64,000 bases of DNA from the UHGV virus genome UHGV-1353844; one strand, written 5' to 3'. The notes below the pieces were generated by a model. The model saw only the letters and a program-made list of their open reading frames with translations. It did not search any database and had not been told where the DNA came from. The stretch is from a virus. The position numbers and the translations under genes are program-made. Shown here one piece after another: positions 862-60,480 of the stretch. How positions within the stretch are numbered: the first letter of the stretch is position 1; each line of letters begins with the position of its first letter.

Positions 862-1779
862 ATGATAGACAATGTGGAATCCAGGATCTCGACGAAGTTG
901 TACGATAAACCCACTATATTGTCCGTAGTTACGACGTCTAAGTGTAACCTAGACTGTAGTTTCTGCGGTGGAGCCTACTACATGAATCGTGAAGATTCGT
1001 CTCGTGCTTTTCAACGCGAACGTATCCTGGAATTACTACAAGAGAATCCAGCTATTAAGGAAATACATTGGACGGGTGGTGAACCGCTACTCGTCCAACG
1101 TAAGATTGAGGATTTCGTTAACGAACTGAAAGTGTCTCATCCGCACCTTGAGCATCACTTGTATACCAACGGCTTAAAACTGCGTAAATCGCATCTTACG
1201 CTGCTAAAAGACTTTGAGCATGTGTTTGTATCAATTGATGGCTACAAACGTTCTGAGCGCCCTTTTATGCGCTTTATTGAAGAGGATAGCCACGAAGCAC
1301 TGGAAGCGTTATACGAACTCGATAACTTCCAAACCTGGGCTGTGATTACGCGTGACCAGTTAGCCGATAAGCGCTGGTATGAAGATATTGTGGATTTACA
1401 TCGTGCGATGTACCACTATCGTCCCCGTGCGTTTTCTCTGATGTTTGATGCCCAAATGCCAAAACCGTTGTCTCCCGATCACATCATGAACTTCGTTTAT
1501 GGTTATTTAAAGATTCAGGAGAATATGGAACGGCTGAACGTCCAAACCGGAGAATCGTGCGGCGTGTCTGTCAGCAAGATTTTCGAAAACGAGTGTAATG
1601 TCTGTAGCGAAGAGTTGTATTTGAACGCAGATGGAACAGAACATCAGCTTCAGAATGCACCGGCTATCTTAAACGGTGGGTGCAATCAGCTTGCTTGCTC
1701 TATCGGGGTAGGTGCTTACGAGTACATTAAACGCGTGATTTATGCAGAGCGTAAAAGGATAAGCAAAGATGAGCAATAA
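862..1779 (+). CDS. radical SAM enzyme with C-terminal auxiliary Cys cluster
   Basis: CNLDCSFC (CX3CX2C) near N-terminus, GGEPLL SAM-binding motif, C-terminal Cys-rich region; SD tggag upstream. Confidence 0.75.
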   Translation: MIDNVESRISTKLYDKPTILSVVTTSKCNLDCSFCGGAYYMNREDSSRAFQRERILELLQENPAIKEIHWTGGEPLLVQRKIEDFVNELKVSHPHLEHHLYTNGLKLRKSHLTLLKDFEHVFVSIDGYKRSERPFMRFIEEDSHEALEALYELDNFQTWAVITRDQLADKRWYEDIVDLHRAMYHYRPRAFSLMFDAQMPKPLSPDHIMNFVYGYLKIQENMERLNVQTGESCGVSVSKIFENECNVCSEELYLNADGTEHQLQNAPAILNGGCNQLACSIGVGAYEYIKRVIYAERKRISKDEQ

Positions 1780-3103
1780 TGAAGCACCACGTTCACAACG
1801 TACTTACCAGGTGGTAACGAACCTGTCTTGTAACTTAGACTGTGAGTATTGTTACGAACGTAAGTATCCGCGTAATAACAAAGCGGCGGATATCGTGGAT
1901 TTCTTACACGCCTGTTTTGAGCGTGATAAAGATATTCCGAACATCGACGTCATTATTGATATCATCGGCGGCGAACCTTTTATGCAACCGAAACTGCTGT
2001 TAGCGGCGTTTGAAACCGCAGAACAGTTGTGTAAGGAGCATAATCGACCGTATATGTTCAGTATCTCCACGAACGGGACGTTGTTAGACCGTCCGTTAAA
2101 CCGTGAGATCGTCGAGCGTTGGAAAGACAAACTCTCCATCGGTGTGTCTATCGACGGGCTGCCAGAAGTCCATGACCGTTATCGTATCTTTACCACGACG
2201 CGTCAGGGTTCTTACGAAGCCGCTGTTCGTGGCTATAACTACTTAAAAGAAGTGGGTATTGCTGAACTGGGTATCAAGGCAACCTTTACAACCGAAACCC
2301 TCCCGCATTACGCGGCGAGTATGAAGTCGTTAATCGATATTGCGGGTGGTGGTACGATTTCGGGTAACGTGACGTACGAAGATATCCTTCCACGGAGCAT
2401 GGCAACGGATATTGCGTTGCAGATGATCGAGGTGATGGATTATTGGATTGAGAAAGGGCTGCACACCAATCCACGTAACGTGTTGTCCCACATCATTCCT
2501 GAAGGTCTGGATTTCCGTCAGATTTGGGACCCAGATTGGCGTGATAAACTGCTGTACGACGACACGCACCGTTATAACCCTGAACGTTTACGTCCGTTCT
2601 GTGGGACGTTGACGTTTATGACTTGTTTAGGTTTTGACCGTAAGGTGTATGGTTGTAACCGATTCATGTCAACGGTAACGTCACGCTCTGCGGTGTTTGA
2701 GTTAGTCGGTCGTGAGTTTGTTAGCTTAGACGGCGGGAAACTGCTGGAAGAGATTCAGACGCAATACACCAACTATCCTGAAACGTGCTTAGGTTGTCCG
2801 ATGAAACACGGTTGTGGGAGCTGTGCAGCTGCTTCCTACGAAAACGGTGAAGGGACACTGGAAGACCGTAAGGCGTACCACGCTGAACGACGTCAATGTG
2901 GTTGGACGACCGCAAAACTGATGGCGGCAGAATACTGGCGTCAACGTACAGGCACCGTCCACGCATCGTCACTGCACGATTCGTCTGTTTGTTACTGTCC
3001 GAAATGTACGCGTGAGCGTGAGCAAGCTAAACGTGCGTTAAATGCACAACCTACTGAGGCAAATAATGAAATCAATTCTGATCCACAATTTTACGAAGCG
3101 TAA
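1769..3103 (+). CDS. radical SAM enzyme with SPASM-type C-terminal domain
   Basis: CNLDCEYC motif, GGEPF motif, C-terminal CLGCPMKHGCGSCAAAS cluster; overlaps upstream gene by 11 nt. Confidence 0.75.
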   Translation: MSNNEAPRSQRTYQVVTNLSCNLDCEYCYERKYPRNNKAADIVDFLHACFERDKDIPNIDVIIDIIGGEPFMQPKLLLAAFETAEQLCKEHNRPYMFSISTNGTLLDRPLNREIVERWKDKLSIGVSIDGLPEVHDRYRIFTTTRQGSYEAAVRGYNYLKEVGIAELGIKATFTTETLPHYAASMKSLIDIAGGGTISGNVTYEDILPRSMATDIALQMIEVMDYWIEKGLHTNPRNVLSHIIPEGLDFRQIWDPDWRDKLLYDDTHRYNPERLRPFCGTLTFMTCLGFDRKVYGCNRFMSTVTSRSAVFELVGREFVSLDGGKLLEEIQTQYTNYPETCLGCPMKHGCGSCAAASYENGEGTLEDRKAYHAERRQCGWTTAKLMAAEYWRQRTGTVHASSLHDSSVCYCPKCTREREQAKRALNAQPTEANNEINSDPQFYEA

Positions 3104-30960: not shown

Positions 30961-31482
30961 CTACGGGTTAAAAGGTAGCGGCTTGCAATCCCGCTTTTTC
31001 AACTCTTCTACTAACTCAGGTAATGTACACCAACGTTTAAATTTGTTGTTGGCTTTAAAGTGGCCGAGAATCTCCTCTACGCGTTCAATAGACCACTTCC
31101 CTTTACCCACGTTATCCAAATCTTTACGTACCGAGAGCGTCTCAATGGTAAACGCTAACTCTGAACTATCCGAGTGGTCGTACAACAATCTTACTGGTGT
31201 AGATTGGTGTAGCGTAACACGCCACCCTGACTCTTTAGCCCAGTAGACGTCTTTAATTCGACCACTGACGTCAATTACGGAACTGATATAAGTCCAGTCA
31301 TCTTCCAGTTTATTCTCTTCAGCAGTTAATGCTTCTTCTAATCGTAAAGAGTTAGGAGTCGGAATCCACCAACCGTATTTACTGTAATAGTCGTCTACTA
31401 CAGTAATACCTTCGTAATACAGATATTGTGTTTTTGTATTAACGAAAATTTCATCGCCAATTAAGACAGCGTTTATCTTCAT
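30961..31482 (-). CDS. hypothetical protein
   Basis: 173-aa ORF. Confidence 0.6.
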   Translation of the reverse strand: MKINAVLIGDEIFVNTKTQYLYYEGITVVDDYYSKYGWWIPTPNSLRLEEALTAEENKLEDDWTYISSVIDVSGRIKDVYWAKESGWRVTLHQSTPVRLLYDHSDSSELAFTIETLSVRKDLDNVGKGKWSIERVEEILGHFKANNKFKRWCTLPELVEELKKRDCKPLPFNP

Positions 31483-31967
31483 CGTAAGTGCTTCCTGTAA
31501 AATAAGTCGTACGTTTGTGATGAAGCTGTATCAATCGAACCTACTAAGGGAATGATATTCTTTTCGGTTATACCTGTTGCCCATGCTGCTCGAGCAAAAC
31601 CTTGACCCGAACCCGTTGCCCAAACCGTGTTTTTATTCAGTACACGAGATTCAAATTTACCCTCTAGCAGCCCGAGCCAGTGTGTTTCCTTAGCTGTAAA
31701 AATGATAACCTGATCGAAAAGTTGTTCTTTTTCGATAAGATCTTTAAATATCTCTTCAACCTTAGTTCGCTTTTCTTCGATCAAATATTTTTCTGCTCCG
31801 GACATTATCGTCGTTTTCCAGAGATCCGAGTCCAATACACGTTCCCCAGTGTAAACAACGAATTTGTTTTTGTATTTGTGTAATTTAGGAAGCTCTTTAA
31901 CTGTGCCGCCGTAATCAACCAACCGATCAGCTAAAATGTAATCCTTTGTTACTAATACCGTTGTCAT
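31479..31967 (-). CDS. HslV-like proteasome-type threonine peptidase (tentative); start ATG at 31967 giving Met-Thr-Thr N-terminus
   Basis: MTTVLVTKD N-terminus, ATGSGQGFARAAW resembles the HslV GSGG.YA.AAA motif; SD GAGGTG. Confidence 0.45.
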   Translation of the reverse strand: MTTVLVTKDYILADRLVDYGGTVKELPKLHKYKNKFVVYTGERVLDSDLWKTTIMSGAEKYLIEEKRTKVEEIFKDLIEKEQLFDQVIIFTAKETHWLGLLEGKFESRVLNKNTVWATGSGQGFARAAWATGITEKNIIPLVGSIDTASSQTYDLFYRKHLR

Positions 31968-31980
31968 CACACACCTCGAA

Positions 31981-32020
31981 GAAAAATAAAAGTACCCTCT
32001 CTCCATTAGGAGAGAGGGGC
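31981..32020 (-). terminator. rho-independent terminator
   Basis: ccctctctcc-atta-ggagagaggg hairpin, A-run before on plus strand. Confidence 0.65.
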
Positions 32021-32025
32021 ACTGC

Positions 32026-32295
32026 TTAAATCTTACGACTGCTACCGTAGCAGCCACGACCGGCTGTCGTTTTCGCAGCACTGACAGGTGCTAACGCAGC
32101 CATCGTACCATCGGCCTTAACAATGTGTAAGTTACCTGCGCGAACCAGACCTTTAAAGGTAATCTTCACACCCTTGCGTAAACTCTTCACTTCATACCCG
32201 TCGAGTTTGAGTGTTTTAACTTTTTCAGGTTTACCTTCTTCGTAATAGGAAAGAACATTACCCGCACGTTTCTCAACAATGTAAATCTTAGCCAT
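32026..32295 (-). CDS. small Lys-rich protein
   Basis: 89-aa ORF with own promoter-like motif upstream. Confidence 0.5.
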   Translation of the reverse strand: MAKIYIVEKRAGNVLSYYEEGKPEKVKTLKLDGYEVKSLRKGVKITFKGLVRAGNLHIVKADGTMAALAPVSAAKTTAGRGCYGSSRKI

Positions 32296-32767: not shown

Positions 32768-32808
32768 GTAAAATAAATACACCCTCTCTCCAAACGGAGA
32801 GAGGGGCA
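32768..32808 (-). terminator. rho-independent terminator, stem nearly identical to 31981-32020
   Basis: ccctctctcc-aaac-ggagagaggg. Confidence 0.65.
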
Positions 32809-32810
32809 GC

Positions 32811-33317
32811 TTACAGCAGATTCTCTTCGCGATCATCTACCAAGATAGACGTAATGACATAACGCGCTAAGCGACTACGCGCTTCTTCAGTTTCTTCGTC
32901 GGACGGTAATGGCTCACCTGCTGGCGCACACAACGTCAGTCCTGATTCACGAAGCTGTTCCGTGTACTCTTCTACGGCAGTTTCAAACGTACCACGAATA
33001 CCTGCGACAGTGTCCATAATCTCATCAGTTGGGATGATGGATTCTTTCAACACAGCATGGGCATCAGTAGGTTCGACGGAGTCTAAGTTCAGTTCGACCA
33101 GCAACGCTTTCTTCGCCAGACAGTCAGTGATAAAACACGACAGAGCTTTTTCAAACTCATCTAAACTGAATTCGGTGTCGTCAGAGGCACCGGTGATGAG
33201 CTGACCGTAACGGTTAAACAGCTCTTTACAACGTGTTTCATAATCAGCATCGATATCACGAACACCGAGGTCGAAATCGTGTTGTTCGAGCTGATTAAAA
33301 TCCAGAGTCTCACTCAT
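32811..33317 (-). CDS. highly acidic protein (candidate DNA mimic, speculative)
   Basis: 168-aa ORF with very high Asp/Glu content. Confidence 0.6.
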   Translation of the reverse strand: MSETLDFNQLEQHDFDLGVRDIDADYETRCKELFNRYGQLITGASDDTEFSLDEFEKALSCFITDCLAKKALLVELNLDSVEPTDAHAVLKESIIPTDEIMDTVAGIRGTFETAVEEYTEQLRESGLTLCAPAGEPLPSDEETEEARSRLARYVITSILVDDREENLL

Positions 33318-37049: not shown

Positions 37050-37694
37050 TTAATTCTCTAAAATACAAGCAACGATTTCAGCCGCTTTTAACCGGTAATC
37101 GTCGTCTTGCTTCACGGGTAATAAATGGTGCAGACAACCACCTTCAGTGAGGATGTGGTGGGCAAAGCGGTAGTGGTCACGTAACGCTTCCCAGCTTTGG
37201 TTATCTTTTAAATACTTAACGGTAAGGACTTCATCGTCCCAATTCTTACCTTGTTCTTCTACCCGTTTCTTAAAGCGTGCTACTGCGCCGTCGTAATCCA
37301 CATCTGTCCAAACGTACAAATCTGGTGCGTGGAAATGACGCGTTAGCTTACGTCGGAAAACTTCGTCTTTACCGTCGACGCCCTGGTAAACGACTGTAGA
37401 GGGACAGAACCTGTCGAAAATAACAACATCGTAATCGTCAACAACATGGTCTAACGTGTGAAGGAAATCGTCGCACATCGCTTCGGCAATTTTTGCTTTT
37501 GCTGCGGACTGAATGACTAAACTGCGTGCACGGATACCCGCCTCGGTCTCCGTCGTAGGGTGATTACGGATGCAGACCTTTAACCCCGCAGATTCCAGCA
37601 TACCTTTTACTATTTTGCACAACGTCGATTTCCCAGAAAAGTCAGGGCCATCAATAGACACTGTCTTAAGCATTATCGTTTTACCTTTACGCAC
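37050..37694 (-). CDS. tmk: thymidylate (dNMP) kinase; likely start at ATG 37673
   Basis: P-loop GPDFSGKST and DRF...VYQG (DRY/AYQ-like) motifs. Confidence 0.6.
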   Translation of the reverse strand: MRKGKTIMLKTVSIDGPDFSGKSTLCKIVKGMLESAGLKVCIRNHPTTETEAGIRARSLVIQSAAKAKIAEAMCDDFLHTLDHVVDDYDVVIFDRFCPSTVVYQGVDGKDEVFRRKLTRHFHAPDLYVWTDVDYDGAVARFKKRVEEQGKNWDDEVLTVKYLKDNQSWEALRDHYRFAHHILTEGGCLHHLLPVKQDDDYRLKAAEIVACILEN

Positions 37695-58194: not shown

Positions 58195-60480
58195 TTATTT
58201 ACCAGCTTTGTCTTTACCGTCGCCAGCAACATTACCTGCTACACCACCTTCGGTTTGTTTCTGACCGTTCTGTTCTACAGAAACGTTGTAAGCCAGTTTT
58301 TCTTCAACCAGTTTGGTGATGCCTTTAACCCAAATCAGACCAGTGATCGGGCAGTGGCAGATATGCGCGTTACGCGGCTGTACAGCCAGTTCTTTAGAAG
58401 TAGAACCGTTACGCTGGATGTTGATGTTGGTAACCATGATCGGAGACCAGAAGTGGTTACCCCAGTTCAGTACGCAGTAGGAACCATCGTCCGCAGTCGG
58501 AACTTTCAGGAACCATTGCAGACGACGAGTCCAGGAATCGTCAGCTGCGTTGTAGATACGCCAGCGGTCATCGTTGGTGGTAACGACTTCGTATTCATAA
58601 CGGTCGCCCAGCAGACGTTGGTCGCCCTGAACCAGCAGCAGCATAGATGCAGTCGGTTCGTCAGTTGCGATAATAACTTTCGGCAGAATGTCCGGATCAG
58701 CGGTCAGCAGGCGCAGTGCAGGAATGAAACGAGAATCCTGGATAGCCTGAGTTACCTGGCTACCGATACGCTGCAACAGACCCTGACGAGCGTTGATCAG
58801 CGCTTCTTTGGTATCCAGAGACTGAACAACTTCATCGACTTTGTAGTCAGACTCTTTGAACCACGGAGCAACCCAGTGACGGCCCAGACCACGGATGGCC
58901 GGTTTGTCCCACGGAGTGATCATCGCAGCGGCTGCGTTACGTACTGCTTCGGTGTAAGACAGCGTCTGAGTAATCGCCAGCTGTTCGTTACGGATGTTCA
59001 CCGCAGAGATCAGGTCGTCCAGACGTTCAGTGTCGTCGTATTCAACACCAACTGGAGACTTGGTCAGAATCGGAGAACCGTATTGCAGTTTGTAGTTTTC
59101 CTGTTCCCAAATTGGGTCAAGCAGCAGACCCTGGGTACGACGGTTTTCGTTGGTACGAGTACCATCGAAGCGCCAGCCCATCAGTTCGAGCTTCAGGCCG
59201 TCCAGGATAACTTTACCGGTGCCAGACTTGGTATCAACTTTGTTACCAGTTGCATCGTACAGACCTTCGATTTCCAGTTTGTGGCCGGAAATGTCTACTT
59301 TACCACCGAACTGGCCGCTGGTGAACAGGGACATGGTGATGGTGATAACGTAGCGCAGGGTGTAGGAGTTCTGACCCAGTGCTTGCAGAGCCGGAATAGC
59401 TGCACCAGTCCAGTCGGTGGTTTTCGCATTCAGAGAGAACGCGGTACGACGGAATTGCAGAACCAGTTCACGGCCGTCACCTTCAGCAGGACGCTGGAAG
59501 GTTGCGAACTGCATGTCACGAACGTGCAGTTTGATGAATTTACCCGCTCTCGCTTCTTCGGTCGGTTTACGTACAGAAATCAGCAGGCTGCCCAGAGCAC
59601 AACCCGGTGCGATTTCATCAGTTTCATCGTAACCTTCCTGAACGATACCCGGATGCGCAGACAGCTGGAACAGGTTCAGCGTGTCGTTTGCAAAGCTCAG
59701 GTAGTTAGTCGGATACGGAGGTACACGACCCAGGCGAACGGTTTCGTTCGGAACCAGTTCTTCGCTTACGAAGTATTCCTGGTTTTCACCGGTTTCCATT
59801 ACGTAAGGAACGATGTTGATCGCTTCGTCCTGGAGAACGGTGTGGTCAGTCAGTGCGTTGTGCAGCGGACGACGATGGTCTTCAACCACGTCTTTGCTCA
59901 GCAGCGCGTTCATGATACCGCGAGAAACGGTAGTCACTTTAGTACGTACGGTAATACCAACATCGTTGGTGTCAACGGTAATGGTCGGGAACAGTGTTTC
60001 AGCAAACTTGGACTGAGTTTCCAGAGCACGTACGTTCAGGGTCCAGGTCAGGCCCAGGTTTTTGTCGTAGTCTTTGTTGCTATAGTATTCCTGAGCAACA
60101 ACCATGCGCTCACGACCCCAGTCACCACCTTGCGCACCAGGGATACCAATATCCAGGTTATACTTGCTGTGGAATTCCGGCTTAGCGTATTCCTGGGCAA
60201 CACGTTCTTGCAGGTCTTTACCGTGGTTAGCTGCGCCCAGAATCATTGCGGAGGCGACAGTCGCAGCATGAGACATTTTCTTGCCGCCAAAAGCGTTGGC
60301 ATAGTGCTGTGATGCTTCGTCACGCAGAGCGCCAAATACTTTTGCGTTGCTACGTACGGACTCGCCTGCAACAATCGTATTCCACATTTCGCTGGCGGTG
60401 TTGTTGCCGATGACGTTTTGGGCCAGACTAGTACCGGCTTCTACGAGTTTCTCTAAATTAGAGATTCGGGTATCTTTCAT
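58195..60480 (-). CDS. major capsid protein candidate (jumbo-phage-sized) or other very abundant virion protein
   Basis: 761-aa ORF with extreme optimal codon bias (CTG, CGT, GGT, AAC) that generates a 685-aa antisense shadow ORF. Confidence 0.75.
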   Translation of the reverse strand: MKDTRISNLEKLVEAGTSLAQNVIGNNTASEMWNTIVAGESVRSNAKVFGALRDEASQHYANAFGGKKMSHAATVASAMILGAANHGKDLQERVAQEYAKPEFHSKYNLDIGIPGAQGGDWGRERMVVAQEYYSNKDYDKNLGLTWTLNVRALETQSKFAETLFPTITVDTNDVGITVRTKVTTVSRGIMNALLSKDVVEDHRRPLHNALTDHTVLQDEAINIVPYVMETGENQEYFVSEELVPNETVRLGRVPPYPTNYLSFANDTLNLFQLSAHPGIVQEGYDETDEIAPGCALGSLLISVRKPTEEARAGKFIKLHVRDMQFATFQRPAEGDGRELVLQFRRTAFSLNAKTTDWTGAAIPALQALGQNSYTLRYVITITMSLFTSGQFGGKVDISGHKLEIEGLYDATGNKVDTKSGTGKVILDGLKLELMGWRFDGTRTNENRRTQGLLLDPIWEQENYKLQYGSPILTKSPVGVEYDDTERLDDLISAVNIRNEQLAITQTLSYTEAVRNAAAAMITPWDKPAIRGLGRHWVAPWFKESDYKVDEVVQSLDTKEALINARQGLLQRIGSQVTQAIQDSRFIPALRLLTADPDILPKVIIATDEPTASMLLLVQGDQRLLGDRYEYEVVTTNDDRWRIYNAADDSWTRRLQWFLKVPTADDGSYCVLNWGNHFWSPIMVTNINIQRNGSTSKELAVQPRNAHICHCPITGLIWVKGITKLVEEKLAYNVSVEQNGQKQTEGGVAGNVAGDGKDKAGK

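Follow-up and report, generated by a model that had tools for sequence, protein, structure and literature searches.

A highly divergent HslV-like peptidase gene in a jumbo phage lineage without an HslU-like ATPase of its own

The DNA analyzed here (hereafter the window; 64,000 nucleotides of the virus genome UHGV-1353844) carries on its minus strand a gene whose 162-aa product, judged from its sequence, is a very divergent relative of HslV with an intact catalytic signature. We consider it likely that the protein is a highly divergent phage Ntn hydrolase of the HslV branch of MEROPS T1, which would use Thr2 as its nucleophile and form a ring particle without an HslU of its own. Phage proteins of the HslV kind have already been recognized, by annotation only, and the window gene is a divergent further member. 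Less ordinary are the lack of a phage HslU-like ATPase, the coupling to a conserved 173-aa gene and the presence of two HslV-like paralogues in the genome. An identity look-up found the exact sequence of the window protein absent from the records, and the protein is labelled hypothetical in every source seen; the present finding corrects that label and brings no new principle. The gene and its immediate surroundings comprise the following features:

31479 to 31967, minus strand: HslV-like N-terminal-threonine peptidase gene (predicted), paralogue 1 (CR5/Machina type), 162 aa
31972 to 31977, minus strand: Shine-Dalgarno-like GAGGTG, ending 4 nt 5' of the ATG, from direct reading of the sequence
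31995 to 32018, minus strand: terminator-like hairpin separating the upstream gene from the HslV-like gene; 10-bp stem (CCCTCTCTCC/GGAGAGAGGG) with a T-tract behind it
30961 to 31482, minus strand: translationally coupled downstream gene, 173 aa, phrog_25529, its ATG overlapping the TGA of the HslV-like gene

The earlier note had proposed an HslV-like peptidase for this ORF on the basis of a Met-Thr-Thr start and the stretch ATGSGQGFARAAW, and both are indeed present in the 162-aa minus-strand frame. The reading frame extends from the ATG at 31967-31965 to the TGA at 31481-31479; its product begins with MTTVLVTKDYILADR (Met-Thr-Thr), residues W116 to 129 consist of W followed by ATGSGQGFARAAW, and the protein contains in order the stretches MTTVLVTKDYILADRLVDYGGTVKELPKLHKYKNKFVVYTGERV...WATGSGQGFARAAWATG...GSIDTASSQTYDLFYRKHLR. 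A program-made ORF list opened the same frame at a GTG at 32081 (200 aa). Because this extension runs over both the upstream gene (32026-32295) and the hairpin, and because homologues begin with Met-Thr or Met-Ser (all 56 of the close set, 63 of the 65 distant relatives), we take the ATG at 31967 to be the start. The full length of 162 aa with the MTT start was found in 49 of the 56 homologue clusters, the other entries being shorter and nearly all from short contigs. Since the hairpin lies only 27 nt upstream of the start codon, the HslV-like gene is probably either the first of a transcription unit or dependent on read-through. A second hairpin at 32782-32805 (minus strand) has the identical 10-bp stem (CCCTCTCTCC-N4-GGAGAGAGGG) and a T-rich tail; the window thus holds two copies of this stem, with none expected by chance, each located just 3' of a gene.

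Kinship with HslV became apparent at the level of the family. Searched as a single sequence, the window protein retrieved nothing relevant from Pfam, NCBIfam or the PDB, and both this protein and 34 close family members missed the cut-offs of the Pfam PF00227 (Proteasome) and NCBIfam HslV models, while only 3 of the 65 distant family members reached PF00227 on their own. A match to PHROG 1040, whose name 'peptidase HslV family' is an annotation label, was obtained with an E-value of 5.6e-6 (residues 1-159 against profile positions 14-157 of 277). Counterparts with 25-31% identity were detected by tblastn in 19 phage records (including CR5, Derbicus, EarlPhillipIV, Phobos, pEa_SNUABM_38, Machina, Parshik, Huxley, pEa_SNUABM_6/10/42/43 and pSal-SNUABM-04), and several of these carry the RefSeq label 'peptidase HslV family'. 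The family is small: a profile search of 1.84 billion representatives yielded only 88 relatives at E <= 0.001, nearly all of 150-190 aa and aligned from residue 1, and a repeated homologue search with a broad alignment added few distant members. No related locus was confirmed for one distant member, P0074.

Profiles built from the family consistently placed HslV first and proteasome beta subunits after it. The best PDB match of a 23-member profile of close and intermediate sequences was Trypanosoma brucei HslV (4hnz, E 0.008), whereas the 65-member profile A4 gave 14 top matches that were all HslV (E 1e-10 to 5e-4), with proteasome beta subunits next in rank. Profile A5 was restricted to 34 members without any PF00227 match up to E 0.1, and again had HslV 4hnz as its top match (E 1.6e-7, residues 11-156 against 14-169); since this PF00227-free profile still ranks HslV first, the kinship is not an artefact of contaminating true HslVs. 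The resemblance of the G-S-G stretch to the HslV GSGG segment, from which the peptidase reading had started, likewise stands above chance, as HMMER sets the family G-S-G on the GSGG of HslV within near full-length alignments (E 1.6e-7 to 1e-10). Scores against proteasome beta (E 1e-3 to 0.09) and BPH (0.3) were weaker, and Anbu was not detected by the family profiles. An hhalign comparison of profile A3 with one E. coli HslV sequence gave only 17% probability over the first 41 residues.

Closer inspection of the alignments located the putative catalytic residues, the conservation of which was counted over 65 family members:

31962 to 31964, minus strand: Thr2 codon, predicted N-terminal nucleophile (Thr1 once Met is removed); Thr in 55/65, Ser in 10/65
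31926 to 31928, minus strand: Asp14 codon, aligned to HslV/proteasome Asp17; 65/65, HMMER alignment to HslV GD
31884 to 31886, minus strand: Lys28 codon, aligned to HslV/proteasome Lys33; 63/65, on the K of HslV K-L/V-R-R
31845 to 31847, minus strand: Gly41 codon, aligned to the conserved Gly of the HslV FAG(G/S)TAD loop; 60/65
31605 to 31613, minus strand: Gly119-Ser120-Gly121 codons, aligned to the HslV GSGG loop; G119 and G121 65/65, Ser/Thr120 62/65
31518 to 31532, minus strand: Asp146-Thr-Ala-Ser-Ser150 codons, D-x-x-S/T-S motif, aligned to T. brucei HslV DIDVFS

By alignment the protein thus has the Asp17 and Lys33 partners, the conserved Gly and the Ser loop of GSGG type; we take D14, K28, G41 and G-S-G to be the Asp17, Lys33, conserved loop Gly and Ser loop of HslV (T1 family). 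The D146-x-x-S/T-S motif, presumably equivalent to the Asp166/Ser169 segment of proteasome beta, is conserved to a lesser degree (D146 in 52/65, S/T at 149 in 49/65 and S150 in 43/65). Thr or Ser directly follows the initiator Met, without a propeptide, in the window protein as well as in all 65 members. In E. coli HslV the initiator Met is removed, which exposes the catalytic Thr1 of the 'TTI' motif (PMC6429459). The same residues bear on the question of whether the protein could be an Ntn amidohydrolase that applies N-terminal Thr chemistry to a non-protein substrate, for instance a modified nucleotide, a peptide of peptidoglycan or some small molecule, and is no self-compartmentalizing protease. 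Such an enzyme would share the threonine nucleophile; however, the profiles point to HslV and then to proteasome beta instead of other Ntn families, a pair of the Asp17/Lys33 type characterizes the proteasome T1 family, and sister phages tie the HslV-like gene to an HslU-type unfoldase, all of which makes this alternative quite improbable.

Structure prediction led to the same family. An AlphaFold2 monomer model based on the 23-sequence alignment (mean pLDDT 74, pTM 0.74) adopts the proteasome-type Ntn-hydrolase alpha-beta-beta-alpha fold, with four strands, two long helices, four strands, a helix, a poorly modelled region (121-148) and a last strand, an order that we take to be that of HslV. 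Foldseek returned T. brucei HslV in first place (E 7.8e-4), although structural alignments to HslV contain only about 11-20% identical residues. The best matches among predicted viral structures were uncharacterized jumbo-phage proteins (RisingSun, PhiPA3, 201phi2-1, Derbicus, Noxifer and RP12) together with a Caulobacter phage 'Proteasome subunit beta'. Profile, fold and catalytic-residue matches therefore all support the HslV-like peptidase reading of the earlier note.

The element that carries the gene is a jumbo phage of ~224 kb related to SPN3US, the closest named genus to the window lineage. Its major capsid protein (58195-60480) shares 78-80% identity with the phiEaH2, Asesino and SPN3US proteins, and further genes of the window code for a DnaB-like helicase, a polymerase, tail and tail-fibre proteins as well as virion proteins of the kind found in phiKZ-like phages. 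Megablast against the 2025 GenBank phage collection returned no match for the locus. The 8 kb around the HslV-like gene share 94% identity with a circular 'plasmid' from Enterobacter ludwigii (222,441 bp; NZ_CP134650.1) whose annotation is plainly that of a jumbo phage, and close protein homologues reside on ~222-226 kb contigs of many Salmonella assemblies. The proposed genus 'Bapsvirus' (Chimalliviridae) comprises lytic jumbo phages of ~220-226 kb in Salmonella, E. coli and Shigella assemblies that are syntenic with Seoulvirus (PMC12768965). The window phage fits this genus by shared properties, as opposed to an alignment with the published genomes, and the carrier-like state (PMC12768965) fits its lineage as well. 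Two further arrangements in the window were observed. The adjacent plus-strand ORFs 862-1779 and 1769-3103, the second of which matches the radical SAM phrog_1802, appear from position and size to be the two adjacent 'radical SAM protein' genes of the Enterobacter relative. The thymidylate kinase gene (37050-37694) adjoins an XRE-family HTH gene (the pair is RIK61_RS23580/23585 in the relative), and SPN3US retains this arrangement with a thymidylate kinase followed by an HTH DNA-binding protein; such a regulator is of note in a phage that persists in host cultures.

A search for a partner ATPase found none in the window, in the complete 222 kb relative or in the lineage's second clade. In CR5, the gene for CR5_127 lies 2.3 kb downstream of that for the homologue CR5_121; CR5_127 has 687 aa and AAA_2/AAA domains, and its two ends are 33-41% identical to bacterial HslU. 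The 19 phage records in which the window protein has a homologue all contain this HslU-like gene on the same strand, at a downstream distance of 1.8-2.4 kb. For pSal-SNUABM-04, a published account places HslV at ORFs 1 and 116 and states 'no HslU detected' (PMC7823757), whereas tblastn with the CR5 protein finds an HslU-like homologue (H69) in this phage at MT710307.1 106153-107874, with 52% identity over the AAA+ parts and the annotation 'putative DnaA protein / hypothetical protein'. The 64,000-nt window contains no HslU-like or classical Walker-A AAA+ ORF. Neither tblastn nor phmmer (E <= 1) detected an HslU-like gene in the 222 kb relative, whose ORFs, when scanned for Walker-A motifs, yielded only the thymidylate kinase and an SbcC-like protein apart from chance matches. 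Two candidates were rejected as partner ATPase: ORF 37050-37694, whose P-loop gave the only weak match of the HslU search in the window, is the thymidylate kinase, and the 834-aa P-loop protein of the 222 kb relative is SbcC-like.

Comparison of gene order placed this absence at a defined position. CR5_119, 121, 123 and 129 map in order to 33311-32841, 31967-31482, 29492-28920 and 27961-27593 of the window, and the interval that in CR5 holds CR5_124-128, including the HslU-like gene, is occupied by a single ORF of 176 aa. Gene order is identical in the lineage's second clade, which also has no AAA+ gene. In SPN3US the flanking genes are present, while the HslV-like gene, the downstream partner gene and HslU are all missing from this locus. 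As CR5/Machina, the window lineage and SPN3US differ in this way, a single syntenic locus exists in three states, with no direction of change implied. Protease with ATPase (CR5, Machina), protease without ATPase (window lineage) and neither (SPN3US) form a natural comparison set, with which the use of host HslU by a phage HslV can be tested against the use of a non-ATPase partner, and which also bears on the role of the protease in a nucleus-forming phage that persists in clinical Salmonella isolates.

The gene that directly follows the HslV-like gene is joined to it by an ATGA overlap (31482-31479) of stop and start codons. The phage pEa_SNUABM_6 (E 3e-22), a third clade (L009, E 1e-23) and the P0034 clade likewise encode homologues of the 173-aa protein directly after their HslV-like genes, and CR5_122, which follows CR5_121, is a weak homologue. 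Because these homologues adjoin in three to four jumbo-phage clades, the two genes constitute a conserved coupled pair, and the 173-aa protein is a candidate partner of the HslV-like protein. It has no match in Pfam or the PDB, and its single-sequence AlphaFold2 model (pLDDT 33) was unusable.

In NZ_CP134650.1 a second paralogue of 166 aa is encoded outside of the region covered by the window, at 88426-88926 (L005 38426-38926; profile E 3e-12). It contains the stretches MTTIVFDGKTLACDGQ...AIGSGAHYALGA...YDLYSGG and looks more canonical than the window protein. This paralogue 2 is the 'peptidase HslV family' gene of SPN3US, SPFM and phiEaH2, occurs in 67 phage records and is also present in Klebsiella and Escherichia phages of 40-50 kb. 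It was the only other relative that the family profiles, which score proteasome subunits as well, detected in the 222 kb relative, and it is not alpha-like. SPN3US gp149, the 'head maturation protease', was considered as a family member and rejected, as it did not match the HslV-like profiles. A distant family member of 160 aa was observed in a siphovirus-like phage of ~40 kb (L010 10001-10483, a 40 kb JGI metagenome contig), where a 242-aa gene separates it from the downstream gene for the small terminase subunit. The 20 kb examined of this contig contain no unfoldase gene, so HslV-like proteins that lack a phage ATPase are not confined to jumbo phages.

The HslV-like gene is maintained by purifying selection. 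We obtained a dN/dS of 0.165 relative to the Enterobacter relative (from only 13 synonymous and 8 non-synonymous changes) and of 0.135 relative to the second clade of the lineage (locus L012 10001-10489; ~66 synonymous and ~59 non-synonymous changes). Constraint was distributed unevenly along the protein, with dN/dS values of 0.033 for residues 1-46, 0.186 for residues 47-110 and 0.151 for residues 111-162, and with 36/46, 15/64 and 34/52 invariant columns, respectively, among 15 lineage members; on both counts the catalytic N-terminus is almost frozen, while the helical middle is variable. The catalytic residues are all invariant across both clades of the lineage. The residues with which HslV grips the C-terminal tail of HslU are 54, 57, 79 and 114 (PMC6429459), and these positions may roughly correspond to the variable middle of the phage protein.

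Between the two clades the HslV-like gene retains only 74% amino acid identity (dS 1.29), compared with 90-97% (dS 0.1-0.4) for most of its neighbours. The 168-aa gene at 32811-33317 is similarly diverged (86% amino acid identity, dS 1.96). This excess divergence of both genes over their neighbours suggests mosaic allele exchange at the locus, in which old alleles were swapped by recombination. The low identity between clades, together with the missing HslU-like partner at the syntenic position, could also be expected of a decaying relic that lost its function along with the phage HslU-like gene and drifts toward a pseudogene. A relic, however, would hardly remain full length in most homologue clusters, keep dN/dS at 0.135-0.165 with invariant catalytic residues in both clades and preserve the ATGA coupling to the next gene, and we find decay extremely doubtful.

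Retention under selection in a phage that encodes no ATPase for the protein is, on the other hand, what a decoy or adaptor would display, i.e. an HslV fold that binds, sequesters or redirects host HslU or another factor, with proteolysis beside the point, and that would thereby protect phage proteins or alter host proteostasis. Dependence on a host factor is plausible, considering that the ~40 kb phage described above has no unfoldase in 20 kb and that paralogue 2 occurs in 40-50 kb phages, and the phage HslU-like protein has, in its AAA+ parts, 38-41% identity to HslU of enterobacteria. Yet the catalytic set, superfluous for a pure decoy, is conserved more strongly than the rest of the protein (dN/dS 0.033, with Thr/Ser, Asp, Lys and G-x-G essentially invariant), and the segment roughly equivalent to the pocket for the HslU tail is the most variable, so that we regard a decoy role as improbable.

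We therefore favor an active peptidase of the HslV branch. Host methionine aminopeptidase would cut off Met1 and leave Thr2 as the N-terminal nucleophile, which Asp14 and Lys28, the counterparts of Asp17 and Lys33, would tune, and Gly41, the G119-S120-G121 loop and the D146-x-x-S motif would shape the active site as they do in HslV. By analogy, the protein probably forms a ring-shaped, self-compartmentalizing particle. Because the lineage has no HslU-like ATPase of its own, the protein would have to act alone on peptides or unfolded proteins, borrow host HslU or work with phage partners, namely the 173-aa protein and/or paralogue 2. A more far-reaching version, which we think rather unlikely, is an unfoldase-independent phage proteasome-like particle that captures host HslU or uses the 173-aa protein as a cap or activator and is directed at host defence or regulatory targets. 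If so, mixed rings with paralogue 2 would be possible, and the particle might aid carrier-like persistence inside the Salmonella and Enterobacter isolates.

Proteasome-like proteases have been annotated in dozens of jumbo phages. In the literature that we searched, HslV and HslU homologues of jumbo phages occur as annotations only, with no functional study of a phage HslV-like protein. In Erwinia phage RAY, gp116, an accessory protein of the HslU family, co-localizes with phage DNA, and its role is only a matter of conjecture (bioRxiv 10.1101/2023.02.24.529968), while the text of a broad comparative jumbo-phage review contains neither 'proteasome' nor 'Ntn' nor 'HslU' (PMC7824862). Compared with known systems, the window protein differs from 20S proteasome beta subunits in its lack of a propeptide and in much weaker profile scores, and for BPH and Anbu the scores are weaker still or absent. 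Paralogue 2 of SPN3US, SPFM and phiEaH2 (NC_027402 1186-1668) belongs to the same superfamily, but has no BLASTP similarity to the window protein, a different genomic location and a far wider spread. The CR5-type proteins (PHROG 1040; CR5_121, YP_008125861) are relatives at the level of orthologues at the same syntenic locus and share with the window protein the ADR and IDxxS motifs, the Met-Thr-Thr start, K28 and the G-x-G loop, and a homologous gene of ~180 aa comes after theirs, although identity is as low as noted above and only those phages encode the HslU-like ATPase. From HslV itself (ClpQ; PDB 4hnz, 1m4y, 1e94) the protein is set apart by its low identity, scores below the Pfam and NCBIfam cut-offs and the absence of a phage hslU anywhere in the 222 kb relative. 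Its D-x-x-S-S motif looks more proteasome-like than HslV-like, and by hand comparison the distance from Thr1 to the catalytic Asp is ~4 residues shorter than in E. coli HslV, with which the hhalign alignment agrees. HslV nonetheless provides the best match in profile and fold, with the same Met-Thr-Thr start without a propeptide, a similar size (about 175 aa compared with 162 aa) and aligned Asp, Lys, Gly and GSG positions.
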